64,000 nt of DNA from Bacillota bacterium (lineage in GTDB: Bacteria > Bacillota_I > Bacilli_A > RF39 > UBA660), in assembly GCA_023391185.1 (NCBI GenBank), contig JAEWBI010000020.1, forward strand, positions 5,592-69,591. Reading direction: 5' to 3'. The translations under genes were made by a program, and so were the position numbers. Each line of letters opens with the position of its first letter. Position 1 is the stretch's first letter. Below the pieces are notes generated by a model. It ran no database searches. It was not told the DNA's origin and saw nothing but the letters and a program-made list of their open reading frames with translations. Shown here in pieces: positions 16,472 through 47,039 of the stretch.

Positions 16472-16822
16472 TTAATCTTTTGGTTTAAATATCAACGAAA
16501 GATAGAATGAAAAGATAATTGCAGAGCATATTCCAGATGCAGTAAGGTTAAACATTCCCATGATTAAACCCATTATTCCATATGTACCTGCTGATTCTAA
16601 CGCCCCATGAATTAATAAATGTCCAAAACTAGTTATAGGAACAAGTGCTCCTCCACCACAGAAGATGATTATCTTATCATAGAAATTAAATATATCTAAA
16701 AAAGAGCCAAGTACAACAAATATAGTAGTTATATGTCCTGGAGTAAGCTTGGTATTATCAAGTATTAATTCACCTATTAAACAAACAACTCCTGCAAATA
16801 AAAAGGAATATATATATATCAT
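16472..16822 (-). CDS. spoVAE: Stage V sporulation protein AEb (SpoVAC/SpoVAEb family).
   Basis: A 116-aa polytopic membrane protein at the third position of the spoVA tricistron, with a 4-nt overlap into spoVAD. Confidence 0.7.
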   Translation of the reverse strand: MIYIYSFLFAGVVCLIGELILDNTKLTPGHITTIFVVLGSFLDIFNFYDKIIIFCGGGALVPITSFGHLLIHGALESAGTYGIMGLIMGMFNLTASGICSAIIFSFYLSLIFKPKD

Positions 16823-17808
16823 TCTATTACCTCCAAACTTATAGCATGCGCAATTGAAGGAATTGGTAGTTTTTGATTTACAGTAGTTGTATTCATAAGC
16901 GCTCCTGTTGCAACTAATAAAACTTTATTAATCTTTTTTGCTTTCATCATACTAAAAACATATCCATATGAAACAAGTGGTAAACATGCTGGCCCACTTC
17001 CTCCTGCATAAACGTCTTGTTTTTTGATATCAAATATCATACAAGCTGAATCATCACAGTTATCTAAGTTTATTTTATAATTTTTTTTCATATATTCTTT
17101 TAACATAGGTTTTCCATATCTACCTAAATCACCTGTTAATATTAAATCATAATAATCTGGTTTTCTATTTGTTTGCTCTAAATGATCATGAATTGTTTGT
17201 GCAGCAGCAATTGCCATTACACCACCCATATTAAATACCTCTTTAATACCTGAATCTACTGCCTTACCTACTGTTGCACTTTCTACTTTAAAACCTGATT
17301 TTTTATTTGATAGAAATGCTGATGCAGCCCCTGTTACTGTAAAGGTTGTAGTTTTAGGTTTTGGTCCACCATATTCTACTGGATATCTAAACTGTTTTTC
17401 AGCAGTATTATTATGTGAAGATGTGCCTACAATAATATTATTAGACTGATTAGCTTCTATCATATTAGAAGCTATAATCAATCCTTCTACACTTGTTGCA
17501 CATGCACTATATATTCCTAGATAAGGTATATCATACTTACTTGCTGTATAATTTGAAGAAACTAATTGATTTAATAAATCACCAGATATAAATAATCCTA
17601 CATCTTTAATTTGTTTCTTTTCTTTTTTTAATAGTAAATTAATTGATTCATCCAATAATTTCATTTCTGCCTGTTCCCATGTGTCTTGTCCAAAATAGTA
17701 TTCATCATATTTTTTATCATAGTATTTTGATAATGGTCCGTCTTTTTCAAATGGTCCTGCGATTGTTTCTGTATTATTTATATATACATTATTATATTTA
17801 AAAGTCAT
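16819..17808 (-). CDS. spoVAD: Stage V sporulation protein AD (thiolase-fold, dipicolinic acid-binding).
   Basis: A 329-aa protein with N-terminus MTFKYNNVYINNTETIAGPFEKDGPL. It has a beta-ketoacyl-synthase-like fold with the Cys motif YSACATS. It is flanked by spoVAC and spoVAEb. Confidence 0.85.
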   Translation of the reverse strand: MTFKYNNVYINNTETIAGPFEKDGPLSKYYDKKYDEYYFGQDTWEQAEMKLLDESINLLLKKEKKQIKDVGLFISGDLLNQLVSSNYTASKYDIPYLGIYSACATSVEGLIIASNMIEANQSNNIIVGTSSHNNTAEKQFRYPVEYGGPKPKTTTFTVTGAASAFLSNKKSGFKVESATVGKAVDSGIKEVFNMGGVMAIAAAQTIHDHLEQTNRKPDYYDLILTGDLGRYGKPMLKEYMKKNYKINLDNCDDSACMIFDIKKQDVYAGGSGPACLPLVSYGYVFSMMKAKKINKVLLVATGALMNTTTVNQKLPIPSIAHAISLEVIE

Positions 17809-18248
17809 TAGCCACCAAATATAAGATATCTTATAATACCAAAAGTATAAGCACTAACTACACCAAAAACAATTACAGAACCAGCTAATTTAAACATATT
17901 TGCACCAATACCAGTTACCATACCTTCTTTGCGGTACTCTAAAGTTGCACTCATCATAGCATGAGCAAATCCAGTAATTGGAACAATTAAACCACATCTA
18001 GCTTTATGAACCCATTTATCAAAAAAACCAAAGCATGTTAATAAACATCCTAAAAAGACAAGAGTAACAATCATGAATACAGAGGCCTGAGCAGTTGGAA
18101 TATTAAAGAAATATGAATATGCCTCAACTAAAACTTGACCTATTAAACCCATAAATCCACCAACAAAAAATGCCACTACTGCATTCTTAAATCTATCTTC
18201 TGTTGGAGTATGTTTCTCAACAATTTCTTTATACATATTTTTATTCAT
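17808..18248 (-). CDS. spoVAC: Stage V sporulation protein AC.
   Basis: A 146-aa membrane protein at the first position of a spoVAC-spoVAD-spoVAEb tricistron, with a 1-nt overlap into spoVAD. Confidence 0.75.
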   Translation of the reverse strand: MNKNMYKEIVEKHTPTEDRFKNAVVAFFVGGFMGLIGQVLVEAYSYFFNIPTAQASVFMIVTLVFLGCLLTCFGFFDKWVHKARCGLIVPITGFAHAMMSATLEYRKEGMVTGIGANMFKLAGSVIVFGVVSAYTFGIIRYLIFGG

Positions 18249-18318
18249 AATAACCTCCTAAAATTATTATGAATAGTTTCTTTTTTTATATACGAACTAT
18301 TGTATATAAAAAAAGAAA

Positions 18319-18798
18319 TTAATTTAGTAATGAATTAATTTCTTTTTCAATCTTTAAAATAAAATTTTCATTATTATTATAATATTTTGAAAACTTATGT
18401 TTTTCAATAATATTAATGTTATTAATAAGTTCTTCTTTTGTAAGAGCCATTAAAACATAATTATTATCTACTAAATATTTAGTAATCTCTAACTGATGAT
18501 CATTTATATGTTCTTTATATTCTTTAAGTCTTGGTACAACTATTACCTTTTTGCCTTTTTCTAAGGCTTTAAAAATTGTTCCGCCACCACCATGAGTAAT
18601 TATTATTCTAGCTTCATCTATTTTTTGATTCATTTCATCATAATTAAAGAAATCATAATATTCAATATTTGGATTTTTAAAAGAAAATCTTCCTTTTCCG
18701 CCTTGAATAATAATCTGTTCTTTTATATTAAGACTATCTATATAATTAAATAATCTTTTAAAAGACTGTTTTTGTGTTCCAATAGTAAATAATATCAT
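18319..18798 (-). CDS. Alg13-like / glycosyltransferase family 28 C-terminal-domain protein (PssE/Cps14G/EpsF-type catalytic subunit).
   Basis: A 159-aa protein. The motif ITHGGGGTIFKALEKGKKVIVVPR matches the Alg13/MurG C-terminal UDP-sugar-binding half-domain. Its stop/start overlaps the upstream Alg14-like gene. Confidence 0.7.
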   Translation of the reverse strand: MILFTIGTQKQSFKRLFNYIDSLNIKEQIIIQGGKGRFSFKNPNIEYYDFFNYDEMNQKIDEARIIITHGGGGTIFKALEKGKKVIVVPRLKEYKEHINDHQLEITKYLVDNNYVLMALTKEELINNINIIEKHKFSKYYNNNENFILKIEKEINSLLN

Positions 18799-21128
18799 TA
18801 GTATACCCCCTTAATATATTTAGCTTTGGGGTATATTTCTTGATAATTATTGTGCTGAACAATAAAAGTTGTCGCGATAGGATAAACTAGTTTTCCTGAA
18901 AGAGTTGGTGTATGAGTCCTGTCAAAAACCTCTACAAATATAATCTTTCGATCAAAAAAGTAACCTAAGTAACACATTAATACTGATGTGTGGGCCCCTG
19001 TTGTATAAATGATATCAGGGTTATATCTAATGAAATAGTATATACTTTTTAAAACATTAAGAATACTTATAAAAACATATTTTAACATATAGTACCTTGA
19101 ACCATAAAATAAATATTTAATTTTATATTTTTCTTTAAGTTTCAAAGAAATTTTATTCTTTTCAGTTATTAAAATGTAATCATACTTATCATAAATACTA
19201 TCTATAGCTAGTAGTTCTGTAAGATGACCACCAACACTTGAAATAAATATAACTTTATTTTTATTTTTTAAATCTCTATAATTATAATCTAAAACTATTA
19301 AATTTAAAAGTAATAAAAAATGAATAAACTCATAACTCATATTTATATCAAGTAATGAAGAACCAATTAGTAATAAAAATAAAGCAATTATATATAAGGA
19401 TCTATCATCTCTTAATAATCTTATAGAATAAACAATACCATACGCAATTAAAGTAAAATAATAAATTACTCCTATTATGCCTAATTCTACTAACATTCTT
19501 GCTATAAAACTATGTTCATCAGAAGGTTCAAAACGAAAGTGATTATTTACTGAATAATACTTAAATGCTCTAAATCCTTGGCCAACTAACATATTTCCTT
19601 TAGTTATTTCTAAAACATGATTATATATATCCATTCTGCCATCTAAACTACCTTTATCGTACTTTGTTTGTTCTTTAGAATGAATATATATATATGGAGT
19701 TAAAATATTATCAACTTCATATACTTGTGTCTTATTAGTATCAAGATTAATTACATATACACTACTTATTTCAGCAGAATTATATATATCCATATTTTCT
19801 AATTCCAGATAATAATACTCGAACTCTTTAAGCGTATTTAATCTGAAATAGTAAGTATTTTGATCTTCATTTATAAACTTTGAATCAACTGTTTTCTTTA
19901 TTATATGAGAGTTTTTAACATATAAAACTTTCAATTTTAAAATAGGATTATTTAATTCATTTTTATTTTTTATATCTAACTTTATTAAATAACTCTTACT
20001 ACATTCTAAATTCATAAAGTCTGCAAAAATAATATTATCTTTTAAATTATTTTCTGTAATATTACTTATTTTTAAAGATTGAGATCTTGGAAAAGCAAAT
20101 AATATACAAACGATAAATAAAATTATAATAAAGGATATAGTATAGATAACTTTACTTTTTTTACTAATTAATAATAATATTAAATAGCTTATGTAATAAA
20201 TTATAAACATTAAGATAATAATAGATAAGAATATTATTAAATTATTGTTATATATAAATATACGAGTTTTATTAATAGCATATAGTACTGGTAAAATTAT
20301 ACAGAAATATATAGTTATTAAATTAATAATTTCTTTATACTTTTTTCGGATAAAGTAGTTAATTATTAGTAATATATTAATAATTAAAAATATCATGGTG
20401 GTTATTTTAGACATTGTTAATAAAAAAGCTAATAACAATATGAATAAACAAAAATGGAAAATAATATTCTTATTATCTGTAGTTAAATAATAACAAGTTA
20501 TAAAATACCCTGTTAGTATAAATGTAGCATAGGTATTAGGATAAAGAAGCGTACCATATAACCTATCTACACTACTTTTATAGAAATCTCCAAACCAAGA
20601 TTTTATTTGCAATAAATTTCCTATATCAGAATTACTTTGAATAATAAATGAAATAATTACTGATATAGTACTAGATAATATAATGGTTTTTAAGATATAG
20701 TTTAGTCTTTCTTTATTAATTATTCTTCTTAAAACAATTACATGAATAGCAATTAATAAACTAACTAATATATATTCTAAATTCAGTCTTATATTTGATA
20801 TATCTTTGCCACATAACATTGGAATAAAATATAACATAGGAAAAGTTAATATTATTAGATCTAATCTATTAAATTTAACTCTTCTTTCCTTATAAATAAA
20901 TATATATCCTAATGCTATAAATAATGTTGAAACAATCCATCCTATTTTTATATATTTAACAATAGATTGTGTGTCTTCAAATATATTAGAATAATTAAAA
21001 TATAGTGGACTTACCATTATATACACTAGAGTTAATAGTATAGTAATTTCTTCATACTTCTTTTTCATAATACACCTAGTTAAGTTACTTTCTAAGTAAA
21101 TTATACTATATGTATTTTTTTGATGCAA
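18798..21128 (-). CDS. Large polytopic membrane protein (O-antigen polymerase/ligase-like N-terminal domain) fused to a C-terminal Alg14-like (PssD/Cps14F) domain.
   Basis: A 776-aa protein with more than 10 TM helices in the first ~350 residues. The C-terminal ~150 aa (VIFISSVGGHLTELLAI...TTGAHTSVLMCYLGYFFDRKIIFVE) matches the Alg14 membrane-anchor subunit that partners with Alg13. Confidence 0.55.
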   Translation of the reverse strand: MHQKNTYSIIYLESNLTRCIMKKKYEEITILLTLVYIMVSPLYFNYSNIFEDTQSIVKYIKIGWIVSTLFIALGYIFIYKERRVKFNRLDLIILTFPMLYFIPMLCGKDISNIRLNLEYILVSLLIAIHVIVLRRIINKERLNYILKTIILSSTISVIISFIIQSNSDIGNLLQIKSWFGDFYKSSVDRLYGTLLYPNTYATFILTGYFITCYYLTTDNKNIIFHFCLFILLLAFLLTMSKITTMIFLIINILLIINYFIRKKYKEIINLITIYFCIILPVLYAINKTRIFIYNNNLIIFLSIIILMFIIYYISYLILLLISKKSKVIYTISFIIILFIVCILFAFPRSQSLKISNITENNLKDNIIFADFMNLECSKSYLIKLDIKNKNELNNPILKLKVLYVKNSHIIKKTVDSKFINEDQNTYYFRLNTLKEFEYYYLELENMDIYNSAEISSVYVINLDTNKTQVYEVDNILTPYIYIHSKEQTKYDKGSLDGRMDIYNHVLEITKGNMLVGQGFRAFKYYSVNNHFRFEPSDEHSFIARMLVELGIIGVIYYFTLIAYGIVYSIRLLRDDRSLYIIALFLLLIGSSLLDINMSYEFIHFLLLLNLIVLDYNYRDLKNKNKVIFISSVGGHLTELLAIDSIYDKYDYILITEKNKISLKLKEKYKIKYLFYGSRYYMLKYVFISILNVLKSIYYFIRYNPDIIYTTGAHTSVLMCYLGYFFDRKIIFVEVFDRTHTPTLSGKLVYPIATTFIVQHNNYQEIYPKAKYIKGVY

Positions 21129-21134
21129 CAGTAC

Positions 21135-21791
21135 CTAGTTCAAATTATTTCTTAGTTTTGTTAAGACTTTTTGTTCTTTTCTTGATACTTGGACTTGTGT
21201 CATACCCAAATTGCTAGCTGTTTGCATTTGAGTCTTATCATCAAAATATCTATTTCTTATAATTTCAAGTTCAGCTGAATCAAGTTTTGTAAGTTCTTGC
21301 TTTAAAGCAATTAAAGTGTTAATATCTAGACTTTTAGCTGGTATAGTTTCATGAAGAGTTACCTCTTTTGAATCACAAGCAATTGGTTCGTCAATACTTT
21401 TCACTTCCCTTTTGCTATTTAAAGCTTCGTTAACTAGTTCCTCAGGTATACCAAGAAAACTAGATAATTCACTTGTTGTTGGTAATCTATATAATCTTTG
21501 TGCCAACATATTTGACGCTTGCTCTATTTTAGAATTTAATGAACTAATATTTCTACTTATCTTTATAGATTTGTCTTCTCTTATAAACTTTTTCATTTCT
21601 CCTAAAATATATGTATAGGCATATGTCGTAAATTTTATATCAAAACTTTCATTATAATTTTGATATGCTTTTATCATTCCTATTACTCCTACTTGAAACA
21701 AATCTTCCTTATTACCATAATTACTAAAATAATTAGTAATTGAATAAATTAAATTTTGATTATTTAGTATTACTTGTTCAATAGGTTCCAT
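21135..21791 (-). CDS. sigF: Sporulation-type sigma-70-family sigma factor (SigF/SigG-like).
   Basis: Strong motif identity to B. subtilis SigF. Region 2: EDLFQVGVIGMIKAYQNYNESFDIKFTTYAYTYILGEMKKFIREDKSIKISR. Region 4: TQVQVSRKEQKVLTKLR. It lies directly downstream of a SpoIIAA-like STAS gene and upstream (after two glycosyltransferase genes) of spoVA, mirroring the B. subtilis spoIIA-spoVA arrangement. Confidence 0.75.
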   Translation of the reverse strand: MEPIEQVILNNQNLIYSITNYFSNYGNKEDLFQVGVIGMIKAYQNYNESFDIKFTTYAYTYILGEMKKFIREDKSIKISRNISSLNSKIEQASNMLAQRLYRLPTTSELSSFLGIPEELVNEALNSKREVKSIDEPIACDSKEVTLHETIPAKSLDINTLIALKQELTKLDSAELEIIRNRYFDDKTQMQTASNLGMTQVQVSRKEQKVLTKLRNNLN

Positions 21792-21802
21792 TTTTTATCT
21801 CC

Positions 21803-22144
21803 TTAAATATTAAATATATTTAATGCTGTTAATTCATTACTAGTTATGGGAATAAAACCTTTCATACCTTTTGTAAAGGCGCTTTCTACTGTACTATTTA
21901 TATTACATATTATTGAATCACCATGATTTTTTTTGCATAATTCATAATTATATATTAAAGAATTTATGCCATTAACATCTATTTCACTTATGTTTTCTAG
22001 ATTAAAAACAATGTTCCGTATACCATTGTCAAAAATCATTTCAGAGACATCTTCGTATAATTTATTACTTGTCTCACCATTTAATTTACCATCTAATCTA
22101 ATAAATAGAATCCCTTTTATAAACTCCATTTCTATTTCGAGCAT
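21803..22144 (-). CDS. spoIIAA: STAS-domain anti-sigma-factor antagonist (SpoIIAA-like).
   Basis: A 113-aa protein that aligns by eye to SpoIIAA (FIRLDGKLNGETSNKL...IRNIVFNLENISEIDVNGINSLI). The conserved phosphorylatable Ser in the DSSG motif is replaced by DVNG. Confidence 0.7.
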   Translation of the reverse strand: MLEIEMEFIKGILFIRLDGKLNGETSNKLYEDVSEMIFDNGIRNIVFNLENISEIDVNGINSLIYNYELCKKNHGDSIICNINSTVESAFTKGMKGFIPITSNELTALNIFNI

Positions 22145-22210
22145 TTAATCACCTTCCTATATAATTTAGCACAACTTTTCTGGCAATTATTCAATTTCGA
22201 CAAAACTAGA

Positions 22211-23596
22211 CTATTTTTTCAAAAGTCTTTTTTCGACAAATTTATCCATAACAAATATTATCGTTAGGCAAACAAGAATTATAGGAAAATTAATTGATTG
22301 TTTTCTTAATGTTTTCTCTTCATCAAAAGATTTTCTCTCCTCTAATTCTTTTATTTTTAACTTGTAATTATTTATTTCTTCCTTTAATAAATTTATCTCC
22401 TTAGTACTTGAAATTATATTTTCTTTAATTTCTAAATTCTTTTCATCAACACTATATGTTGCTGATTTAGCTGCATCTAATAAGTAATCTATGTACTGTT
22501 CTTGCTGTTTTAAAGCATATAAATAGTTATCCTTTATATCAACTTTTACAGTAGTTGATACAGTCTTAAACGGTAATATAAAATTAATATTATAAGTTCC
22601 GTTAATATTAGGATTTAAATTACTTGTTATATCAATATTATCTACTGTGCTTTCTAATATAAAATCTTTTAAATTAATGTTTTTATCATCAATAATTAAA
22701 TCATCTTTAATAACAACTTTATCACGCACCCGATATCTATAATATGTTTTATAATCTTCATAATCAATTTTGAATTCTTCAGTTTCCTCTGATAAGTATA
22801 AATCCTCATATATTTTTGTAGTAAATTCTTGTCTTTTTAGTAGATAATTATTACGATATGCAAGATAGTTATCAATAATTTTTCCATTTATTTCACTATC
22901 ACAGTAGACAGTATTCGTTGTATTTAAATATAATTCTTCAACATCATAAAAATTATGTACAAAGAATGTTGTGTTTGTTTCAGAAGAATCATCAATCAAA
23001 GAATTAACAAATATTTTTTTACTAAATGGATCACTATCATTATTCATATATAAAGCTAAATTTGCTTTAGCATTCTCTTGTTTTTTTATAGATATGTTTA
23101 TTTCTAAATCACCTAAGTTATAATCTTTATCAATATAAAAAATAAACATATCATTTGTATACATATCAAAATTAGCATTATCTATTAAAACTTCATCTGT
23201 TTTAGTATTAAAAGCAAAGATGTGATTAACATGTAGGTTCCTATCTAAGTTTTTTAAATAAAAATACTTAAGTTTCTTGAATGGTTGATATGTATATGCA
23301 TTACACTGTTCTATTTGATAATTAATATCTAGTAAATCTTTATCTTTTACCCAATTAGAATAAATATTAGGATAATCACCTGTTTCTTTATGTAATTGAT
23401 CTTCTACATATTGGTAATCTATTTTTTCTTTGTACGCATGATATAATTTTTTGGTTTCTACTAAAGTAACATCATTAGATTTTTGTTCAAGTTCGGAATA
23501 ACTTGTAAAATCTCCATAGTCCCCATAGTAAGTTTTAGCAGACACAGGCTTAATAAAACTACATATTAACCCTATAAAAATTAATGTTTTTTTCAT
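22211..23596 (-). CDS. Hypothetical secreted protein with a Sec signal peptide, a C-terminal coiled coil and a C-terminal TM anchor.
   Basis: A 461-aa protein. Signal: MKKTLIFIGLICSFIKPVSA. C-terminal TM: FPIILVCLTIIFVM. No recognisable catalytic motifs. Confidence 0.45.
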   Translation of the reverse strand: MKKTLIFIGLICSFIKPVSAKTYYGDYGDFTSYSELEQKSNDVTLVETKKLYHAYKEKIDYQYVEDQLHKETGDYPNIYSNWVKDKDLLDINYQIEQCNAYTYQPFKKLKYFYLKNLDRNLHVNHIFAFNTKTDEVLIDNANFDMYTNDMFIFYIDKDYNLGDLEINISIKKQENAKANLALYMNNDSDPFSKKIFVNSLIDDSSETNTTFFVHNFYDVEELYLNTTNTVYCDSEINGKIIDNYLAYRNNYLLKRQEFTTKIYEDLYLSEETEEFKIDYEDYKTYYRYRVRDKVVIKDDLIIDDKNINLKDFILESTVDNIDITSNLNPNINGTYNINFILPFKTVSTTVKVDIKDNYLYALKQQEQYIDYLLDAAKSATYSVDEKNLEIKENIISSTKEINLLKEEINNYKLKIKELEERKSFDEEKTLRKQSINFPIILVCLTIIFVMDKFVEKRLLKK

Positions 23597-34212: not shown

Positions 34213-35445
34213 TTATTCTAAATTAACTTTTGAAGCAATAATAACTGGAACTACATTACATACAGTTTCTTTTGCTTCTCCATAAACTTTAGATATAATA
34301 TCATCAATTTTTTTTGCTGCATAACCTGAAGAAACATTATACTCAGAATTTGTCCAATAACAATTAGCAGTTGATAAGTAACTAAATTTATCATTATGAT
34401 AACCATAGTATCCATTATAAGTTGCTGTCTTAGTAAGTTCTGATGTCATTCGATTAGCATATTTCAAATTACCTGCTACGACATTGGAGATGCCGCTTCT
34501 TACTAAATTGGTATCCATAATATCTGTCGATATAACTCCCATAATATCACCTGCAGTTAATTCCCTTGTTGGTACCGTCCAACCATTAGTAACACTTGCT
34601 AATAACGAAGAATAGTCATTAAATGATCCTGTAGCATATGTATTTTTAGGATTAGGTAATAGAGTTACTGTATCGTCACCTAATGTATTATTTTTATCTA
34701 ATACATAAGTTGCTATACAATTATCACCTATTTCTGAACATTTTTTATTATTAACTACATCATATAAAACTGTATCTCCTAAATTATAACGCGTATCACT
34801 TGAACTGTATCCACCAGCGTATTGTTCTGCCATGATTTTTATTACAATTTGAATTGATGACTTAATTTGATAGTTAGGGTCATTTTGCTTAAGTTCTAAC
34901 TCACTTTTGTCAAACTGATATGCTTTAGTTCCCCATAAACTATCAAAAGCATCATCACCTGAATCAAGTGGCCAAGATATTGAAACTTCAAAATAACTCT
35001 CTCCACCTTTAGATAATATATAGTTCTTACTTAAATTCATATTAATGTGAAATGGATAATTATGCGATAAAACATCACCAATATAATCTGAATCAATAGT
35101 GCCTTCATTTACCACAAAATTATTTTCTGCATCACCAAGTAATCTTGCTGACTCGATTGAGTAATTAAGTTCAGCATCAGAATCGCCCAAATTCTTGATA
35201 TTAATCATTTCGTGAGATGTTTCCATACCTGGATATATATCTGAAAGTGATATAACAACCTCATTTGAAACAGGTTGACCATCTTTATTTAATTCAATAT
35301 ACCATGCTTTAACACCTATTTCTGCAGACACATCAGCTAAACCACTATATGCAAACCAGGCAAGTGTTACAGATATAAATGAAACTACAATAAAAACTAA
35401 AGACATTAAGTTTAGTTTTAAATAAAGTTTGTGCTTTTCTTCCAT
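34213..35445 (-). CDS. TasA/camelysin (CalY, peptidase M73)-like secreted protein with a SipW-cognate-like signal.
   Basis: A 410-aa protein. Signal-anchor, then TLAWFAYSGLADVSAEIGVKAW...VISLSDIYPGMETSHEMINIKNLGDSDAEL. This parallels the TasA stretch AFNDIKS...ASVNLSNLKPGDKLTKDFQFENNGS. Confidence 0.55.
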   Translation of the reverse strand: MEEKHKLYLKLNLMSLVFIVVSFISVTLAWFAYSGLADVSAEIGVKAWYIELNKDGQPVSNEVVISLSDIYPGMETSHEMINIKNLGDSDAELNYSIESARLLGDAENNFVVNEGTIDSDYIGDVLSHNYPFHINMNLSKNYILSKGGESYFEVSISWPLDSGDDAFDSLWGTKAYQFDKSELELKQNDPNYQIKSSIQIVIKIMAEQYAGGYSSSDTRYNLGDTVLYDVVNNKKCSEIGDNCIATYVLDKNNTLGDDTVTLLPNPKNTYATGSFNDYSSLLASVTNGWTVPTRELTAGDIMGVISTDIMDTNLVRSGISNVVAGNLKYANRMTSELTKTATYNGYYGYHNDKFSYLSTANCYWTNSEYNVSSGYAAKKIDDIISKVYGEAKETVCNVVPVIIASKVNLE

Positions 35446-35472
35446 TTATATCACCTCAACTAATTTAATATT

Positions 35473-36054
35473 TTAACTTTTTGAATTTGATCTTCTTTTT
35501 TCTTCTTTTGCTAGTAAAACAGAGATAAATTCATTACCAATAACAAATATTAACGGTAGGATTATAAATAAATAAAATCCTATCTTTGTACCAACAATTT
35601 TATATATTAATGAAAGCGTTACAACTCTGTATTTTACAACTCCATATAACTGGCTTTCATAAACTATAGGATCTTCAACTATATTAGTTAATCCTTTAGA
35701 ATGGAAAATATAATCTCCATTTTCATCCTTATTAATCTCTACAACTTCATGTGTAATAATCTTGTCTTTAAAACTTCCACTCTTGCCTAAATAACTAATA
35801 GTATCCCCAACTTTAATCTCAGATGGTTCAACTTCCTTTGAAACTAGAACGTCTCCTATTTTGTATCTAGGTTCCATACTTCCTGAAATTACTGTAAACA
35901 TTCTATAATTGAAGAATGATAACTTATTATCACTAAAACGTTGTAAAAATACAACAAGTATAAATGCGATTACTAAAAATATTACAATTGCATTTAATAT
36001 TTTACTAATAATATTTATTATCTTATTTTCTTTTAATTGCTTAATTAAATTCAT
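35473..36054 (-). CDS. sipW: SipW-type (ER/archaeal-type) signal peptidase I.
   Basis: A 193-aa protein with an N-terminal TM, catalytic box VISGSMEPRY, HEVV, and a C-terminal TM (IGFYLFIILPLIFVIG). This is the architecture of SipW rather than the P-type SipS/T. Confidence 0.8.
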   Translation of the reverse strand: MNLIKQLKENKIINIISKILNAIVIFLVIAFILVVFLQRFSDNKLSFFNYRMFTVISGSMEPRYKIGDVLVSKEVEPSEIKVGDTISYLGKSGSFKDKIITHEVVEINKDENGDYIFHSKGLTNIVEDPIVYESQLYGVVKYRVVTLSLIYKIVGTKIGFYLFIILPLIFVIGNEFISVLLAKEEKRRSNSKS

Positions 36055-36063
36055 TTTTTTTAC

Positions 36064-37200
36064 CTACAAATAATCTTGTGTCCTTTCTAAATATTCATCT
36101 ATCGCGCTTTTAAATTTATCTTTAATATCTGCGCTACCTACTAAGACCTTATTTTTTTCGTCTTTTATTTCAGCTGTAACCATGCTAAGTATTTGTTCCT
36201 CTGTAATTTTAATTCCACTGTTTAACATAAGCATGACTACTCTTTGCAATTGCTGCTTTATCATAATAGCAGCATATTTTTTCAATTGTTCTTTTTCTTT
36301 TCTTTTAGATGCATAAATAGAATCCAGAACAAAATAATCCATCAAAAATGAATCATCCAAAATACCTTTTAATACATCATTACCTGTACTATCTGAACTA
36401 TCGCTAGAATCAGATAAATTCTCATCATAAGTCTGTAAAAATGTCCATAATTTTGTTGCTACTTGAAAATTAGGATTCTTTAAAATTAGGTTTGTCTTTT
36501 TAATTGGTGGAATTACAAATGGGACATGAAGTTTATTTAAAGCTTTTATCATTTCACTTCGTTGCCACCCAGTAAGATAATCCTTAACTCTTTTAAGTCT
36601 TTCCTTAATTTTTTGTATTTCTTTTTTAAACTCTGATATATTTTGACCTTCAGGTAATTCTTCTAGTGAAACTTTAAATTCAATACTTACTTTTTCTCTA
36701 GAAGTTTTTGTTGAACCTGCATATTCTAAAGTTTTGGTGCTTTTTGCTTCAATGTCATCAAGCATAGCCTGTTTTTTTAAAACAAAGCGGTTCATAGTAT
36801 CTATTAATGTATAAAGAAACCTATTCTCATAAGTATTATAGGTTTCTTCAGGAAATGTTATAAATAGTTTAGATGGTTCAACATCTTCAGTCTGTTCATT
36901 AATTTTATCAATAAAATGTGTATGTCTAGTTAAGTGTTTTACACTATCTACACTAGTTTTTTTTGCTTTTTCTATTTTTACTATAGCAGACTCAGTATAT
37001 AGTGCCACTTTAGCTCTAACAACAATATTTTCAAGATATGGACAAGCATATTCAAGTTCTTCTAGCCAATTTAAAGACATTAGTTCACTTTCAAAATCTG
37101 ATTTGAAATACATTTCTGATTTCAGATTTTTTTTAAATTGTTCACTTTTTTTATTTAACTCTGCATCTACTTTAATTCTTGATTGCCTTGCCATATACAT
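36064..37200 (-). CDS. Hypothetical cytoplasmic protein, encoded directly downstream of the McrB-like AAA+ gene (the McrC-position partner).
   Basis: A 378-aa protein with no TM. It is K/E-rich with an SDSSDSSDS run. Only 10 nt separate it from the upstream gene. No convincing PD-(D/E)xK motif was seen by eye. Confidence 0.4.
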   Translation of the reverse strand: MYMARQSRIKVDAELNKKSEQFKKNLKSEMYFKSDFESELMSLNWLEELEYACPYLENIVVRAKVALYTESAIVKIEKAKKTSVDSVKHLTRHTHFIDKINEQTEDVEPSKLFITFPEETYNTYENRFLYTLIDTMNRFVLKKQAMLDDIEAKSTKTLEYAGSTKTSREKVSIEFKVSLEELPEGQNISEFKKEIQKIKERLKRVKDYLTGWQRSEMIKALNKLHVPFVIPPIKKTNLILKNPNFQVATKLWTFLQTYDENLSDSSDSSDSTGNDVLKGILDDSFLMDYFVLDSIYASKRKEKEQLKKYAAIMIKQQLQRVVMLMLNSGIKITEEQILSMVTAEIKDEKNKVLVGSADIKDKFKSAIDEYLERTQDYL

Positions 37201-37210
37201 TCACCACTCT

Positions 37211-38752
37211 CTAAAATGACTTCTTAAGTCTTTCTAAATATTGAATACATTCAGACATTGATTCATCTCCAAATGTCTTATGCAAATACTTTATAAAAGG
37301 ATCAATTTCATCACGTATTAATGAAATATTTAACTGATCAAATTTACGAAATATCTTCTTTGAAATAAAATAATCAATACCATCAACTTCTTTACCACCA
37401 CATGAAACATAAACTGGTACAAAGGCATTTAATTGTTTCATAATACGATTACCGAACGCTACGCGGAAATGATTGATAACATAAAGTTCCATATCTTGTA
37501 TTTTTTCAATTGATTTTGCGCTAACTGGTTTGTCTTCTTGAGCCTTTTTAAATAGTGATTCAAGATAACTTGAATTGATACTCATAGCTTCTTGTTCTCT
37601 ACTCTTAAATGGATCACAACGAGTATTGATATCAATTGGCATTGCACGGTCATAAACTTTATCTGTAACCATAAAAGTTGAATCATCATTATTGATTGTT
37701 CCAATATACCACAAATTGCCAGGTAATTTAAGTTTACCATCTACAATTCTTTCAGGATCATCTGCCCAACCACTTGATACAACAGGAATAATCCACTCTT
37801 CTCTAGAAGGCATTTCAAGAATTGAAAGCATCTCAGCGAAATAATATTCAACACGCGCGATATTCATTTCATCTAGAATAATTGTATGAATATCATCATC
37901 TAGACTAGCAACATAAAGTTCTACCAAAACTTTTGTTTCATTAAACTTTTTAGTGAACTCATTGAAGTACCCTATTAATTCTGTTTTATCTCTCCAAGAA
38001 GGTTCTACTGAAGCAACGCAAGAATCTTTATTTATAAATTTTCCCCATGCATATGCAAGTGAAGTCTTACCTGTTCCAGAAATACCTTGTAAAATTATTA
38101 ACTTACCAGAAGCTAATCCAGCAATAAATGCTCTTAAAAGTCCTGGTTCATAGTATAAGTGCAATTGTGTTGCCGAAAAGCAACGAAAGTTATCAACTAA
38201 TTCTTCCAGAGTAAGATTGTTATTGTAATTTTTAGGTTTAAATCCTTTGAATCTCCTATCAATACTACATAACATAGGGAATCTAGAATTAATACCTGCT
38301 AATTCATCTGCATCTAAATCTTCTTCCTCTGATAAGTTATCGCTCTCTTCTTTTTCTTTATCATCTGGTTTTAATCCTAGTTGCGAAACTTTCATAGCCA
38401 TAATTTCATCTTTTTCTTTCATAAGTTTCGCAACTTGATCATTTAAATCTGATATTTCATTTAATAAATCTTCTTGATTCATTCTCTTTTTACCTAGTTT
38501 AAAGAAACGCATTAATCGTGTAACTATTAAAAAGATTACTAAACCTACAATTATAACAAGGACTGCAACTAATATCCATAACAATATCCATTCGCCCTCT
38601 TGAAAACTTCCCTTATAACTATTTACTATCTTTAAGTATGATTTAATACTAAACATTTGGGCTAATCCTTCACCTATAGCCTTTATAATGAATAATAAAC
38701 CATCGAAAAATATTGAAATAAATTCATAGAAAAATCTTAAAAACGTATTCAT
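37211..38752 (-). CDS. Membrane-anchored McrB-family AAA+ (GTPase-type) protein.
   Basis: A 513-aa protein with an N-terminal ~80 aa carrying two TM helices, then a coiled coil. Walker A is ILQGISGTGKTS and Walker B is IILDEMNIARVEYYFAEMLSILE. The McrB-signature-like segment is YIGTINNDDSTFMVTDKVYDRA (cf. McrB GTMNTADRS...D.A.RRRF). The ATGA overlaps the upstream SipW-fusion gene. Confidence 0.65.
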   Translation of the reverse strand: MNTFLRFFYEFISIFFDGLLFIIKAIGEGLAQMFSIKSYLKIVNSYKGSFQEGEWILLWILVAVLVIIVGLVIFLIVTRLMRFFKLGKKRMNQEDLLNEISDLNDQVAKLMKEKDEIMAMKVSQLGLKPDDKEKEESDNLSEEEDLDADELAGINSRFPMLCSIDRRFKGFKPKNYNNNLTLEELVDNFRCFSATQLHLYYEPGLLRAFIAGLASGKLIILQGISGTGKTSLAYAWGKFINKDSCVASVEPSWRDKTELIGYFNEFTKKFNETKVLVELYVASLDDDIHTIILDEMNIARVEYYFAEMLSILEMPSREEWIIPVVSSGWADDPERIVDGKLKLPGNLWYIGTINNDDSTFMVTDKVYDRAMPIDINTRCDPFKSREQEAMSINSSYLESLFKKAQEDKPVSAKSIEKIQDMELYVINHFRVAFGNRIMKQLNAFVPVYVSCGGKEVDGIDYFISKKIFRKFDQLNISLIRDEIDPFIKYLHKTFGDESMSECIQYLERLKKSF

Positions 38753-41001
38753 ACTTCCTCACTCCCAAAATCCCCAACTTTATTAGATATATCTTCATAA
38801 ATTACTTTTTCTTTAAGATCATCTGGTATTAGTGAAACAATTTCCGCCAAATTCTCTAATTTTTTATTAACAAAGATATAATCTGCTATATATATATTGC
38901 CACGGTCTTTTTCTTTAATATTGCTGTCTTTACTAAAAACTAAAGCAAACTTATATCCACTTTTTTTGATTTTTTTAATAAAAACCTTATGTTTCAATAG
39001 TTCTTGAAATGTTACTAAGATAGCTGTATTCTCTTTAGAATATTTATCTTCAATCATCTTTAGTAGTTTTTCAAATTTCTTTTCTTTATCATACAAAGTC
39101 TCTGGAATATGGAAAACATACTTTTTACCAAAATCAAATGTTGTCATATCATTAATTAGTTGAATTAATAATAAAGTCACTAATACAGATATTTTATCCT
39201 CAGCCACAATTCCTTGTTCATATGTTTTATCTATAACATATGAACTATATACTTTACTAAAAGAAATATTATGTTCTAATTTCAATCCATATATTTTATT
39301 TTTAGTTGCTATTTTTTCAATATTTAGATTAAATAAATTTGTCTCTAATTTTTCAATAAAACTTTTTAATAATTCAGCATATTTTTTTTGTATAATAATT
39401 ATTTGTTTAATTAATGTATCAATCTTGTATTCATCTAATTCCTTTGAATATCTAGTCAATAGTTTTTTATAAAAATCACGTCTTGGACCTATTTCTTCAA
39501 TTGAATCTTTGGCCTTTTCAATATTAGCTATCAACATAAATACTTGTGCGTATTCATTAACTATTGCTTCATACTTGCGATTAGAACCAGTATATTTCTT
39601 AACCAAACCAGTTGATACATTGTTAATTGTCTTTTCCAGTCTTAACATTAGACTTTTCTTACTTGTTTCACTACTATCTTCTTCATAGTAATTATAATAC
39701 TTAGCATCAATATAATTAATTGTGAAAGTATTCTTAATGTTATTTCTAATTCCTGTTTCACTAACTTTTACTTTATCACTATTTATTAAAACCTTTACTA
39801 AACGATTAATCTCTTCTTTTTTTATTAACATAGCAGTATCAATTATATTTTGATTTCCTTTTCTGTCTTTCAAAAAGTTTAGATTTATTTTAGTTAAGCT
39901 TGAATCTTCTAAAATAATTTCATCGTCTTCTTCTACATCTTTATTAATAACAGGAGTATTAGTTGAATCTGATTGTTTACTATTTTTCATATTATTTGCT
40001 ATTTCTAATAGTGCAGAGCTATCTAATTCAGATATATCTACAGAAATATTTCTATATAATAAAGTTTTATCTAAATTATCCTCATCTTCAACTATATTAG
40101 TTTTTTCAATTAATTCCTCTTTTTCAACTTTATATTTTTCATCAACTTCATCATTTACTGAAATTACTCTAAAGAATGAGGTTTTACCAAGTTCATTTTC
40201 TAAATCAGCTTCAGATATTTCATCATTTTTTTGACTCGAAATTTCTTTAACCTTTTCTTCTTTTATTTCAACCGGTATATCTTCTAACCTATTTGAAACA
40301 TTAGGAACTTCAACAATTTTTCTCTCAACTTTTACTTGTTTAGTTTGTTCTTTTGAAGCTTCTATTTTTTTTCTAGGATAAACAGACTTAATAAATTTTA
40401 AAACAACTGGTATTATTCTCTTTTCAAGTACTTCTGAAATTTCATTAACTAGCATTGTTTTAGGTTTGTTACTATTTTTCTTATCGTCTTCTTTATTTTT
40501 CTTAACAACTATACTAAATAAAACTAATGTAATTATTAGAGTTATTAATACTGCTGGGTTAAATATTGTCTTTCTTAAAATTCCAAAACCAGCTAATTTT
40601 GCAACTTTCTTTCCTACTATTTGACTTTGATCTATTGGATCATCTTTTGTATTATTAGCATCACCTTTTGTTACATAAGTTCCATTATAAACCTCTATAA
40701 TACGGTGTGTTACATACTCTCCATCAATTTCATATGTTACAATATCATTTAATTTAACGTCTTGTGTTATTTTGGTAATAATCCAATCACCAGCACTTAT
40801 TTCTTTTTCCATACTGCCTGTTTGAACTTCAAATATTGAATATCCAAAAAAGTCAGTATAATTTTTATTCATTATTTTAGTTTGTATGCCTGTATATATT
40901 GTTACTAATAAAATAATTCCAAATATACCTATTAATATATTCAATAAAAAATTTATTATTTTTTCAATTATATTTATTTTTTTGGAATCGATATTTACCA
41001 C
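38749..41001 (-). CDS. SipW-type signal peptidase I domain fused to a ~550-aa C-terminal (predicted cytoplasmic) K/E-rich domain.
   Basis: A 750-aa protein. It has an N-terminal TM, catalytic boxes FEVQTGSMEKEI, VTHRIIEV and TKGDANNTKDDP (boxes B, D and E of S26 peptidases), a second TM (VLITLIITLVLFSIVV), and then a long hydrophilic extension. Confidence 0.65.
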   Translation of the reverse strand: MVNIDSKKINIIEKIINFLLNILIGIFGIILLVTIYTGIQTKIMNKNYTDFFGYSIFEVQTGSMEKEISAGDWIITKITQDVKLNDIVTYEIDGEYVTHRIIEVYNGTYVTKGDANNTKDDPIDQSQIVGKKVAKLAGFGILRKTIFNPAVLITLIITLVLFSIVVKKNKEDDKKNSNKPKTMLVNEISEVLEKRIIPVVLKFIKSVYPRKKIEASKEQTKQVKVERKIVEVPNVSNRLEDIPVEIKEEKVKEISSQKNDEISEADLENELGKTSFFRVISVNDEVDEKYKVEKEELIEKTNIVEDEDNLDKTLLYRNISVDISELDSSALLEIANNMKNSKQSDSTNTPVINKDVEEDDEIILEDSSLTKINLNFLKDRKGNQNIIDTAMLIKKEEINRLVKVLINSDKVKVSETGIRNNIKNTFTINYIDAKYYNYYEEDSSETSKKSLMLRLEKTINNVSTGLVKKYTGSNRKYEAIVNEYAQVFMLIANIEKAKDSIEEIGPRRDFYKKLLTRYSKELDEYKIDTLIKQIIIIQKKYAELLKSFIEKLETNLFNLNIEKIATKNKIYGLKLEHNISFSKVYSSYVIDKTYEQGIVAEDKISVLVTLLLIQLINDMTTFDFGKKYVFHIPETLYDKEKKFEKLLKMIEDKYSKENTAILVTFQELLKHKVFIKKIKKSGYKFALVFSKDSNIKEKDRGNIYIADYIFVNKKLENLAEIVSLIPDDLKEKVIYEDISNKVGDFGSEEV

Positions 41002-41714: not shown

Positions 41715-41737
41715 TATTTATGCCTAATTATTTTTAA

Positions 41738-42640: not shown

Positions 42641-42651
42641 ATTTCATCATC

Positions 42652-43203: not shown

Positions 43204-43210
43204 ATTTCAC

Positions 43211-46909: not shown

Positions 46910-46954
46910 AACATCATTCCTTCTTACACGATTATTTACTTTAGTATACTATAA

Positions 46955-46970
46955 TAGATTATACCATAAT
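46955..46970 (-). promoter_or_regulatory. Extended -10 element (TGgTATAAT) upstream of the giant gene.
   Basis: The reverse complement of 46958-46966 is tggtataat, about 45 nt upstream of the start at 46909. Confidence 0.35.
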
Positions 46971-46999
46971 CTCCCTATTTTTGCTATAATACGCCTTTT

Positions 47000-47032: not shown

Positions 47033-47039
47033 AATATTT

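Follow-up and report, generated by a model that had tools for sequence, protein, structure and literature searches.

A direct spoIIAA-like/sigF-like gene pair lacking spoIIAB and the SpoIIAA phospho-site in a clade of uncultured Bacilli

Results

Layout of the gene pair in the window and in its relatives

The window, namely the whole 64-kb stretch of DNA analysed in this study, contains a STAS gene derived from spoIIAA (21803..22144, minus strand, as are all features of the locus given below; 113 aa), in which the canonical phosphorylation site is non-phosphorylatable. It is followed by a short SigF-type sigma gene (21135..21791; 218 aa) that lacks about 18 N-terminal residues, corresponding to a region-1.2-like helix. 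The open reading frame list and the sequence bear out the earlier note in that the STAS stop codon and the sigma start codon are separated by exactly 11 nt (GGAGATAAAAA, 21792..21802), and that no spoIIAB lies between the two genes, since neither a gene nor a remnant is present in this spacer, which includes the ribosome-binding site of the sigma gene.

The same direct junction was observed in four assemblies with an identical sigma factor (L001-L004), in species whose sigma factors show 95% (L005) and 85% (L006) identity, and in distant clade members whose contigs reach 1.13 Mb. Almost all of the approximately 70 clade loci with both genes complete, which represent 61 distinct STAS–sigma pairs (50 of these at <90% identity), have a STAS–sigma gap of -29 to +15 nt. 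The earlier note had proposed comparing the operon in related genomes, and the direct junction in L001-L006 and in about 70 other complete-pair loci, with no adjacent spoIIAB, agrees with its reading. It had also considered a recent deletion, visible as an adjacent spoIIAB in close strains and as frameshift remnants here; this comparison was negative, as there is no room for remnants and none was found. The layout is moreover identical across independent ENA, Logan, JGI and NCBI assemblies. A recent deletion or an assembly artefact does not account for the missing spoIIAB, and the spoIIAB-less pair characterises the clade as a whole rather than a single organism. The STAS and sigma genes form a translationally coupled two-gene unit, and their dN/dS values (0-0.16 for the former, 0.03-0.10 for the latter) show purifying selection on both.

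Promoter and translation signals

Only two exact copies of TTTGTCGAA occur in the 64-kb window, where chance alone would give 0.31, and both are located a short way upstream of the STAS gene. The distal Spo0A-box-like site with this sequence (22232..22240) lies within the 3' end of an upstream gene, here called gene X, and is kept in the close relatives L005, L006, L014 and L015. The proximal Spo0A-box module TCTAGTTTTGTCGAA (22196..22210), which we take to be a Spo0A site from the B. subtilis 0A-box consensus, has a TGTCGAA core starting 58 nt before the STAS start codon. This module was found in 57 of the 61 distinct clade upstream regions; in 44 of these 57 it lies 58-59 nt from the start codon, and in 55 the distance falls within 55-61 nt. 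Further downstream, the conserved element TGTGCTAAATTA (22162..22173) fits a TRTG-type extended -10 (TGTG-C-TAAATT), and the clade promoter consensus reads TCTAnTTTTGTCGAA-N3-GTATAA-N13-TGTGCTAAATTA. When the promoter was compared by eye with those of sigma-H, sigma-F/G, sigma-E and sigma-K, no assignment was obtained, and only the TRTG extended -10 fitted well. The STAS ribosome-binding site AGGAAGGTGA (22149..22158) is kept as GGAAGGTGA in most clade loci. The conserved putative Spo0A-box promoter probably switches the pair on at the onset of sporulation.

Family, fold, and altered motifs of the STAS protein

The 113-aa protein carries a Pfam STAS domain (9e-16), and its best NCBIfam model is that of SpoIIAA (TIGR02886), with a score of 55.1 bits, under the equivalog cut-off of 114.75. 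Clade STAS proteins reach 35-56 bits with this model, compared with 127.6 in the canonical sister locus L095. Structure prediction by AlphaFold2 gave a model with a pLDDT of 92.3, for which the top five Foldseek matches were all SpoIIAA chains (TM 0.89-0.92; best 1thn_B, TM 0.92), and by this model the SpoIIAA fold is retained. As is typical of spoIIAA, the gene is the first of the operon, before sigF and near spoVA.

In place of the SpoIIAA D-S*-S-G phospho-loop, the window has the codons for D56-V57-N58-G59 (21968..21979), with gap-free alignments across the motif; in a phmmer search against the PDB, the protein aligned without gaps over DSSG to the SpoIIAA structures 1th8, 1tid and 1auz, and the motif read DVNG. 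The residue that receives the phosphate is the one directly following the Asp, as in RsbV D55-S56* (PMC7340262); in SpoIIAA it is S58 (Met1 numbering), where the 1tid chain has Ala, and its equivalent in the window is Val57. The claim of the earlier note that the phosphorylated serine of DSSG is lost in DVNG holds because both serines are gone, and is refined in that the acceptor is the first Ser, replaced by Val57, while the second is replaced by Asn58. The homologue alignment thus has a Val at the phospho-site, neither Ser nor Thr.

Over the clade, the acceptor position is hypervariable, being occupied by I, L, V, M, K, C, Y, N, E, F or G in 58 of the 61 STAS proteins and by T or S in three. 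Because of these three, and because two clade members (L043 and L051) have Ser at the position after the acceptor, residual phosphorylation may occur in some sub-lineages.

The second altered motif is the G-E21-L-D23 loop, which docks on SpoIIAB/RsbW and is replaced in the window by G19-K20-L21-N22 (22079..22090). SpoIIAA Asp23 and Glu21 are known to dock on, or to clash at, the SpoIIAB/RsbW surface (PMC7340262). The equivalent of Asp23 in the clade is N in 38 proteins, T in 11, S in 5 and D in just 5 of 61 (N22 in the window), and that of Glu21 is variable, with Glu in only 10 of 61 (K20 in the window). Gly62 is replaced by Asn in 44 of the 61 proteins, and Asp57 and Gly60 are invariant. The loop-2/loop-4 face is still the best conserved surface of the STAS protein, but with new residues, namely N-K-x-T in loop 2 and D-x-K/Y/N-G-I-N in loop 4. 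A survey of net charge and pI over the clade STAS proteins gave values of -7 to +16, a spread that offers no hint of a new partner.

Identity of the sigma factor and its short N-terminus

The sigma protein contains the Pfam domains Sigma70_r2, r3 and r4, and its best NCBIfam model is that of SigF (TIGR02885), with 192.4 bits, under the cut-off of 321.45; other models gave 135-144 bits for SigG, 115 for SigB and approximately 50 for SigE/SigK. As the SigF of the sister L095 also fails the TIGR02885 cut-off (236.7 bits), the low SigF score is a trait of the wider lineage. The top PDB match was sigma-F 1l0o_C (4e-39), in an alignment that begins at chain residue 30, and the gene has the position of a sigF orthologue, after the spoIIAA/AB site and before spoVA.

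The conserved N-terminal helix of SigF (L-I-x-x-A/S-Q-x-G-D-x-x-A, before region 2.1) is absent from the window sigma, which begins at about residue 19-21 of the L095 protein; its residue 3 aligns with L095 residue 21 (EQVI being common to both). The DLFQ motif is preceded by 24-29 residues in 54 of the 61 clade sigma factors, versus 44-59 in canonical SigF. Natural STAS–sigma fusions were also considered among long sigma matches, and these hold no STAS domain: P0177 is a tandem-duplication artefact, P0259 is a chimera, seemingly with a seryl-tRNA-synthetase N-terminus as read by eye, and P0301, P0317, P0234 and P0249 are sigma factors fused to unrelated N- or C-terminal regions.

Neighbouring genes

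Gene X (22211..23596; 461 aa) encodes a protein with a signal peptide, a large extracytoplasmic part, a coiled coil and a C-terminal membrane anchor, for which no Pfam match was obtained. In at least 14 further clade loci, a homologue of it (E 1e-28 to 8e-5) directly precedes the STAS gene. From this topology, the product of gene X is unlikely to be an anti-sigma factor.

On the other side of the pair, two glycosyltransferase genes (a Wzy_C+PssD/Alg14 fusion and PssE; 18319..21128) between sigF and spoVAC form part of the context, outside the module. They are limited to the close relatives of the window (L001-L006), whereas in L008, L010, L012 and L095, which are without them, the sigma gene is followed directly by spoVAC. 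A forespore-type promoter-like site, GTATA-N17-CATAATA (18265..18293), which matches the sigma-G/sigma-F consensus, lies upstream of spoVAC; this motif was found in the sigma–spoVAC spacer of many clade loci, and L095 has GTATT-N17-CATACTA. The genes spoVAC (17808..18248; Pfam 110 bits, TIGR02838 163 bits), spoVAD (16819..17808; 403 bits) and spoVAEb (16472..16822; PF03862 in the L001 counterpart) then follow, and the order spoVAC-spoVAD-spoVAEb after sigma is common to the clade and the canonical sister. YabP, YqfD, YlbD and YlbE are encoded near the pair in L008. Apart from gene X and the spoVA genes, the neighbours of the pair vary. The only PP2C in the window (2219-2959) belongs to a housekeeping rlmN-prpC-prkC arrangement, and an Rfam search of the window for rRNA and riboswitches gave no matches.

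Search for SpoIIAB

In the whole 64-kb window, no SpoIIAB/RsbW-like open reading frame was found by HMM or by phmmer with three seeds, and permissive tblastn of the window and the clade flanks revealed no SpoIIAB remnant. The flanks, approximately 1 Mb in total drawn from 94 sources (+-10 kb at about 90 loci), likewise contained no SpoIIAB-like open reading frame or remnant, with only the Lachnospiraceae control L007 being detected. Weak GHKL-like matches in L070 (7383-8456), L081 (2474-3409) and L089 (4191-5381) proved to be a GT2-TPR protein, MraW and an ordinary HisKA histidine kinase, respectively. SpoIIAB of the sister lineage shows 55-68% identity to that of Bacillus and Clostridia; as the protein is so highly conserved, a clade copy would hardly escape annotation pipelines. 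The passages on order RF39 in a KO survey describe spoIIAB and spoIIE as reduced or absent, and predict that RF39 still sporulates with altered regulation (PMC10868615). From this survey, for regions beyond +-10 kb of the pair, we infer that SpoIIAB and SpoIIE are probably absent genome-wide in the clade.

The clade, its canonical sister, and the origin of the pair

In a crude NJ tree, 81 short-sigma clusters (50% identity) formed one clade without a member of canonical length, and the immediate sister was a canonical SigF, P0226, of locus L095. This locus has the order S11 dacF, STAS, SpoIIAB, sigF (240 aa) and spoVAC-AD-AEb. Its STAS protein contains the GELDHHT and FMDSSGLG motifs and exceeds the TIGR02886 cut-off, its SpoIIAB (150 aa) scores 183 bits with TIGR01925, above the cut-off of 135, and its spoIIAB overlaps the start of sigF by 20 nt. 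L095 resembles the clade in the synteny of S11 dacF, STAS, sigF and spoVAC-AD-AEb, in having the 0A box arranged alike, some 60 nt ahead of the STAS start, and in a similar STAS N-terminus (LDMEFREGVLFVRLKGEL). It differs in that only L095 has SpoIIAB, the motifs GELDHHT and FMDSSGLG, and a sigma factor of the full 240 aa. The GC content is 34% in L095 and approximately 27% in the clade; in NCBI, the nearest named relative of L095 SpoIIAB is '[Tenericutes bacterium]', and two of the clade sigma factors themselves carry the name '[Bacilli bacterium]'.

The clade probably represents uncultured AT-rich gut Bacilli of the GTDB order RF39, and its gene content is like that reported for RF39, with spoIIAB lost and spoVAD and yqfD kept (yqfD being seen in L008). 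An ancestor with a canonical dacF-spoIIAA-spoIIAB-sigF-spoVA operon would have lost spoIIAB, possibly through a single deletion of about 0.5 kb that also took the first 18 or so sigF codons. One deletion would be the simplest account of the loss because spoIIAB overlaps the sigF start in the sister lineage.

Discussion

This study provided evidence that the pair is probably a reduced sigma-F regulatory module, fixed in a large uncultured low-GC clade of Bacilli and working without the kinase/phosphatase switch. Because the acceptor Ser and the docking residues Asp23 and Glu21 are gone, the STAS protein would no longer be a switch operated by a kinase and a phosphatase, and SpoIIE-type dephosphorylation would be without its canonical target in this protein. 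Our best guess is that sigma-F is controlled in some other way in the clade, one that is phosphorylation-independent and possibly direct. The earlier note had offered two options, an anti-sigma factor encoded elsewhere or a sigF that is regulated differently; we lean toward the latter because of the hypervariable acceptor, the loss of Asp23 and Glu21, the fall in TIGR02886 score and what the RF39 passages of the KO survey describe.

Concerning the mechanism, the STAS protein would still have to act on sigma-F, as it is under purifying selection and always co-expressed with sigma-F. The mechanism that we prefer, and put forward tentatively, is that the STAS protein binds sigma-F directly and stoichiometrically, as a holding or anti-sigma factor. 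The contact could be made through the old kinase-binding face with its new conserved residues, and sigma-F would be released in the forespore by a cue other than dephosphorylation. It is conceivable, with similar reserve, that the relay of SpoIIE, SpoIIAA, SpoIIAB and sigma-F has collapsed into a two-protein, phosphorylation-free STAS–sigma switch. Strict adjacency and translational coupling make sigma-F itself the nearest partner of the STAS protein, which is a pointer and not proof, and we know of no precedent for the direct binding of a STAS protein to a sigma factor. If this mechanism is true, the first sporulation sigma factor would be activated specifically in the forespore with neither SpoIIAB nor SpoIIE taking part.

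Among the other explanations, a SpoIIAB/RsbW-type anti-sigma factor may be encoded elsewhere in the genome, with the STAS protein as its non-phosphorylatable antagonist, acting constitutively or under the control of a ligand, in the manner of mycobacterial RsfA toward UsfX. This arrangement is compatible with a search that covered the window and +-10 kb at about 90 loci, with the invariant Asp57 and Gly60 of the loop, and with the existence of non-phosphorylated STAS antagonists of GHKL anti-sigma factors, of which RsfA is one. We nevertheless judge it unlikely, since the residues that dock on such a kinase are gone together with the Ser, the score with the SpoIIAA model, 127.6 bits where the operon retains spoIIAB, is down to 35-56 bits where it does not, and the conservation of SpoIIAB makes its detection easy. 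The reduction or absence of spoIIAB described for RF39 in the KO survey passages (PMC10868615) speaks against it as well, as does, weakly, the fact that none of the best 120 of 7,998 relatives of L095 SpoIIAB was traced to long clade contigs.

Equally improbable in our view is that an unlinked anti-sigma-F factor outside the GHKL family has replaced SpoIIAB and is antagonised by the STAS protein without phosphorylation, or that no post-translational brake exists and the STAS protein has another role linked to sigma-F. A changed partner would fit the best conserved face with its new residues, and STAS-only proteins whose partners are not anti-sigma kinases are known (SypA and MlaB). Against this, no conserved cytoplasmic candidate gene lies beside the pair, and the strict adjacency and coupling with sigF point to sigma-F as the nearest partner.

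It is very unlikely that the pair is a decaying remnant in a non-sporulating lineage or an assembly or binning artefact. The clade genomes are small and reduced, both proteins score under their NCBIfam equivalog cut-offs, and a sporulation predictor that treats spoIIAB as a universal marker gives RF39 0% (PMC12536801); these points are outweighed by the identical structure in ENA, Logan, JGI and NCBI assemblies, the dN/dS values of 0-0.16, the promoter module that 57 of 61 loci share with nearly constant spacing, the intact spoVA genes with a forespore-type promoter and the lack of frameshift remnants. Finally, the sigma factor could be considered another group-3 factor, SigG- or SigB-like, with its own STAS partner, which would make the spoIIA comparison misplaced, as its 192 bits against a cut-off of 321 and the mere 'sigma-70 family' label of clade members at NCBI might suggest, but this is the least credible explanation, given that SigF is the top model ahead of SigG and SigB, that sigma-F 1l0o is the best PDB match, that the gene lies between STAS and spoVAC-AD-AEb as in the canonical L095 operon, that an S11 dacF-like gene lies upstream in L010 and L012 as in L095, and that L095 shares the low SigF score.

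The circuit of SpoIIE, SpoIIAA, SpoIIAB and sigma-F is the textbook start of cell-specific gene expression after asymmetric division. To our knowledge, the SpoIIAB-type kinase and the phospho-site have been thought universal in spore-formers, and the very streamlined Candidatus Arthromitus is no exception. In the clade, the sporulation programme, as predicted from its genes, looks intact because spoVAC, spoVAD and spoVAEb with their promoter follow the pair and YabP, YqfD, YlbD and YlbE are near it in L008. Predictors that use spoIIAB as a universal marker will call this abundant gut clade non-sporulating, perhaps wrongly. The clade is diverse and gut-associated, comprising no fewer than 81 sigma clusters (50% identity), and represents a natural experiment: either a simpler compartment-specific activation of sigma-F is possible, or STAS domains are capable of a novel mode of sigma-factor regulation.

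The loss of spoIIAB and spoIIE, probably in the same clade, was already reported in the KO survey (PMC10868615), which is a gene-presence table. Its passages on RF39 do not describe the promoter, the STAS-sigF pair that is kept, the loss of the phospho-site or the shortening of the sigma factor.

Several known systems can be compared with the pair. The non-canonical STAS-only proteins SypA, BtrV and MlaB (PMC8256260, PMC7367683) are similar in that a single-domain STAS protein makes protein-protein contacts outside the textbook anti-sigma cycle. They differ in that most keep a phosphorylatable Ser and a cognate kinase (SypE, BtrW), MlaB binds an ABC ATPase, and none is part of a two-gene unit with a sigma factor.

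Mycobacterial RsfA is a STAS antagonist of the anti-sigma-F factor UsfX/RsbW that is not controlled by phosphorylation (review PMC8256260). It shares with the clade protein the control by a STAS protein of a SigF-type sigma factor without a phospho-serine switch, but RsfA acts via a GHKL-type anti-sigma factor, whereas no such factor is linked to the clade pair and the clade probably has none at all; RsfA and the clade protein are not orthologues.

The closest comparison is with the canonical SpoIIAA-SpoIIAB-sigma-F/SpoIIE switch of B. subtilis and Geobacillus (1th8, 1tid and 1l0o), which has the same STAS fold, the same sigma regions 2, 3 and 4, the same operon position upstream of spoVAC-AD-AEb and Spo0A-box-like sites at the promoter. 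Unlike this switch, the clade locus has no gene for a GHKL anti-sigma kinase and its sigma factor is about 18 N-terminal residues shorter, and unlike canonical SpoIIAA, the STAS protein of the window has Val in place of Ser58, Asn in place of Ser59, Asn in place of Asp23 and Lys in place of Glu21.

Results

The window has a GC content of ~27%, and nearly all of its genes lie on the minus strand. It encodes a 113-aa STAS-domain protein (22144..21803, minus strand; Pfam STAS, 9e-16) followed by a 218-aa sigma factor (21791..21135, minus strand; Pfam sigma-70 regions 2, 3 and 4). The earlier note had described this pair as spoIIAA-like and sigF-like genes separated by 11 nt, with spoIIAB missing and the phosphorylated serine of DSSG replaced. 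The ORFs and the sequence confirmed the junction, whose 11-nt spacer, GGAGATAAAAA, contains the ribosome-binding site of the sigma gene. The top NCBIfam model was SpoIIAA (TIGR02886, 55 bits) for the STAS protein and SigF (TIGR02885, 192 bits) for the sigma protein, both scores falling far short of the equivalog cut-offs (114.75 and 321.45, respectively); the sigma protein scored 135–144 bits on SigG and 115 bits on SigB. Two glycosyltransferase genes separate the sigma gene from spoVAC, spoVAD and spoVAEb further downstream; therefore, the pair occupies the spoIIA–spoVA neighbourhood of a spore-former.

The glycosyltransferase insertion (18319-21128, minus strand), comprising a Wzy_C plus PssD/Alg14 fusion protein and a PssE glycosyltransferase, was found only in close relatives of the window (loci L001–L006), and in the rest of the clade spoVAC directly follows the sigma gene. 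If co-transcribed with sigF, the pair would bring a polysaccharide function under early sporulation control. Just upstream of the STAS gene, the protein encoded at 22211-23596 (minus strand; 461 aa) combines a signal peptide and a coiled coil with a C-terminal membrane anchor and has no Pfam match. Homologues are recognisable at the equivalent position of no fewer than 14 further clade loci (E 1e-28 to 8e-5; for example L017 2566-4062, L049 8398-9930 and L019 2251-4107), and the gene may be a lineage-specific one for a sporulation envelope protein, placed between dacF and spoIIAA.

No SpoIIAB/RsbW-like ORF was present anywhere within the 64-kb window, and permissive tblastn revealed no spoIIAB remnant in it. 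An HMM from SpoIIAB and RsbW seeds, applied across the loci (about 1 Mb of sequence), detected a kinase solely in L007, a Lachnospiraceae control with the canonical order spoIIAA-spoIIAB-sigF. The sole PP2C phosphatase of the window (2219-2959) lies inside a housekeeping rlmN-prpC-prkC arrangement (486-3984, minus strand; radical-SAM RlmN, PP2C phosphatase and PASTA Ser/Thr kinase), and neither its length nor its context is SpoIIE-like. SpoIIAB and SpoIIE are probably absent from the clade genomes.

In a phmmer search against the PDB, the STAS protein was aligned gap-free over the DSSG motif to Geobacillus and B. subtilis SpoIIAA, and the motif reads D56-V57-N58-G59 in the window. Because SpoIIAB phosphorylates the first residue after Asp (S58, Met1 numbering), Val57 is the acceptor equivalent and Asn58 replaces the second Ser, which upholds the DVNG reading; the 1tid chain has Ala at the acceptor position. 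The phospho-site of RsbV is D55-S56, Asp23 hydrogen-bonds Arg23 of RsbW, and Glu21 is the negatively charged residue clashing with sigma-F on SpoIIAB (PMC7340262). These two kinase-contact residues are Asn22 and Lys20, respectively, in the window protein. The AlphaFold2 model (pLDDT 92.3) had SpoIIAA chains as its five top PDB structure matches (TM 0.89–0.92), and the STAS fold is predicted to be intact.

The same positions were compared in 61 distinct clade STAS sequences (B. subtilis numbering). The acceptor Ser58 is replaced by I (11), L (10), V (9), M (9), K (5), C (4), Y (3), N (3), E (2), T (2), F (1) or G (1), and S remains in one sequence. Ser59 is represented by K in 33, Y in 13, N in 7 and others in 8; Asp23 by N in 38, T in 11, S in 5, D in 5 and others in 2; and Gly62 by N in 44 and others in 17. 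Glu21 is variable, with Glu in 10, and Asp57 and Gly60 are invariant. In one sub-lineage (L043 2447-2821 and L051 10001-10342), the loop reads D-I/M-S-G and its second position is Ser; here spoIIAB is likewise missing, the conserved 0A-box promoter module is absent and the upstream gene reaches nearly to the STAS start. Its regulatory state may differ from that of the rest of the clade.

The identical sigma protein occurs on contigs of four independent assemblies with the same gene order, and two GTDB species representatives (95% and 85% sigma identity) share the junction. A homology search with the STAS protein gave 39 clusters, down to 41% identity, none of which has Ser/Thr at both old DSSG positions. 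The STAS gene is followed by a sigma gene of 217–221 aa and spoVAC-AD-AEb in three remote members of the clade, among them one on a contig of 1.13 Mb. A metagenome scan added 80 further loci. Across all of these loci, wherever both genes were complete, the gap from STAS to sigma was in nearly all cases between -29 and +15 nt and the sigma length between 214 and 230 aa. The sigma family comprises more than 120 clusters at 90% identity, 55–95% identical to the window protein and nearly all 213–225 aa, and at 50% identity the short sigma yielded at least 81 clusters. Among the relatives of the window, dN/dS was 0–0.16 for the STAS gene and 0.03–0.10 for the sigma gene, and both genes are under purifying selection. 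The direct junction without adjacent spoIIAB is found in close and distant members alike, and the sigma-F module without a linked kinase is an ancient, selected, clade-wide trait rather than a local deletion. One representative, P0234 (698 aa), has a 495-aa K/E-rich region of unknown function ahead of a C-terminal short-type sigma (DLYQVG motif onward) and no STAS domain; a gene-calling fusion and a genuine N-terminal extension are both conceivable.

The clade sigma lacks the canonical SigF N-terminal helix L-I-x-x-A/S-Q-x-G-D-x-x-A: in 54 of the 61 members, DLFQ is preceded by 24–29 residues, whereas canonical SigF has 44–59, and the 1l0o alignment of the window protein starts at residue 30 of Geobacillus sigma-F. 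When 1.84 billion representative proteins were searched with a profile, ~55 short sigmas ranked on top, the first canonical-length match being P0226 (240 aa). In a neighbour-joining tree of the sigma alignment with the N-terminus left out, which gives only a rough phylogeny, the 81 short representatives formed one clade with no canonical-length member and with P0226 as its immediate sister. P0226 is encoded at locus L095 (34% GC) in a full canonical operon: an S11 dacF-like gene, a STAS gene with GELDHHT and FMDSSGLG, spoIIAB (150 aa; TIGR01925 183, over the cut-off of 135), and sigF, followed by spoVAC-AD-AEb. At L095, spoIIAB and the start of sigF share 20 nt, and the window sigma starts at the position of L095 residue ~19–21 (PIEQVI aligned to ALEQVI). 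Both the missing spoIIAB and the shorter sigma would be explained by a single deletion of ~0.5 kb that began just past the end of the STAS gene, after its stop codon, and ended near codon 19 of sigF. The STAS protein scores 127.6 bits on TIGR02886 in L095, above the cut-off, versus 35–56 bits in the clade, which suggests that it diverged fast from the SpoIIAA model after spoIIAB was lost.

Upstream of the STAS gene, 57 of the 61 distinct loci share the arrangement TCTAGTTTTGTCGAA-N3-GTATAA-N13-TGTGCTAAATTA-N5-GGAAGGTGA-N5-ATG, and L095 has the same layout. The distance from the TGTCGAA core to the start codon is 58 or 59 nt in 44 of these 57 and 55–61 nt in 55. TTTGTCGAA matches the Spo0A-box consensus; its only two exact copies in the 64-kb window (0.31 expected by chance) both lie in this upstream region. 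TGTG-C-TAAATT can be read as an extended -10 of the TRTG type. GTATA-N17-CATAATA, the forespore sigma-G/F-type consensus, precedes spoVAC in the window and many clade loci; judged from this motif, the forespore transcription programme appears to be in use.

Elsewhere in the window, an S11 D-Ala-D-Ala carboxypeptidase (dacF/dacB-like) is represented by its C-terminal part alone (57079-57621, minus strand, in the region 57061-59461), which matches residues ~208–379 of full-length homologues; no part of the window encodes the N-terminal half. Beside it is a gene for a large serine recombinase (58025-59461, plus strand), and at L010 950-3404 a recombinase gene lies directly ahead of an S11 gene starting at residue ~117. 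The arrangement resembles a sporulation gene interrupted by a skin-type intervening element. In the window, the putative element would extend beyond the window end and carry an ORF with a DpnII/MboI-like restriction endonuclease domain (59504-60268, plus strand; Pfam 6e-13), with no methylase seen next to it, and a complete Gabija anti-phage pair (60293-63785, minus strand). The latter comprises GajB (UvrD-type helicase, 648 aa; PADLOC 560 bits) and GajA (AAA plus OLD-TOPRIM, 529 aa; 512 bits), whose genes overlap by 44 nt. Another defence island may be represented by the sparsely annotated large ORFs at 34213-41001 (minus strand): a 378-aa DUF2357 protein, a 513-aa match to the candidate defence family PDC-M26A (120 bits), a Peptidase_S24-domain protein of 750 aa, and two ORFs of 193 and 410 aa without matches. 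The successive minus-strand ORFs (192 to 1232 aa) filling about 15 kb at 41136-56618, without Pfam domains except one Bact_surface_Ig-like domain and a weak DUF2935 match, may encode surface or spore-envelope proteins of the lineage.

Discussion

The observation of the earlier note is real, and its interpretation is supported and can be extended to the clade: the STAS and sigma-F genes form a tightly coupled unit with conserved Spo0A-box promoter elements and no linked SpoIIAB, and the STAS protein has kept its fold and lost the acceptor Ser and kinase-docking residues. We infer that sigma-F is no longer controlled via phosphorylation of the STAS protein, which was probably retained because it still acts on sigma-F. 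The former kinase-facing loops are the best-conserved exposed segments of this protein, and their residues are new (G-x-L-N-K-x-T and I-D-x-K/Y/N-G-I-N). In our preferred reading, which is tentative, this old kinase-facing surface would now bind sigma-F directly, the STAS protein serving as a stoichiometric holding factor or anti-sigma factor.

An unlinked SpoIIAB encoded elsewhere, with the STAS protein as a constitutive antagonist, seems rather improbable; the docking residues have been lost along with the acceptor. Similarly doubtful are an unrelated anti-sigma factor and a different function of the STAS protein; the conserved junction points to an action on sigma-F itself. A decaying remnant in a non-sporulating lineage is very unlikely beside purifying selection and the apparent forespore programme. 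Least credible is a sigma factor that is not a sigma-F orthologue: its score is below the equivalog cut-off, but SigF is the top model and the sister lies in a canonical operon.

NCBI names two clade sigma proteins '[Bacilli bacterium]' and the nearest named relative of the L095 SpoIIAB '[Tenericutes bacterium]'. In a published KO survey, the order RF39 shows reduction or absence of spoIIAB and spoIIE. The clade has kept spoVAD and yqfD, which argues against RFN20 CAG-449 and ML615J-28 as that survey describes them; the clade is therefore likely RF39. No account of the retained STAS–sigF pair, of its missing phospho-site or of the shortened sigma was found in the available parts of the literature searched. 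Comparative studies place spoIIAA, spoIIAB, sigF and spoIIE in the gene set common to all spore-formers (PMC3533761), and a machine-learning predictor, which scored RF39 at 0%, found spoIIAB in 63 of 63 predicted spore-formers (PMC12536801). The module described here bears on this long-held assumption of a universal core of endospore formation.
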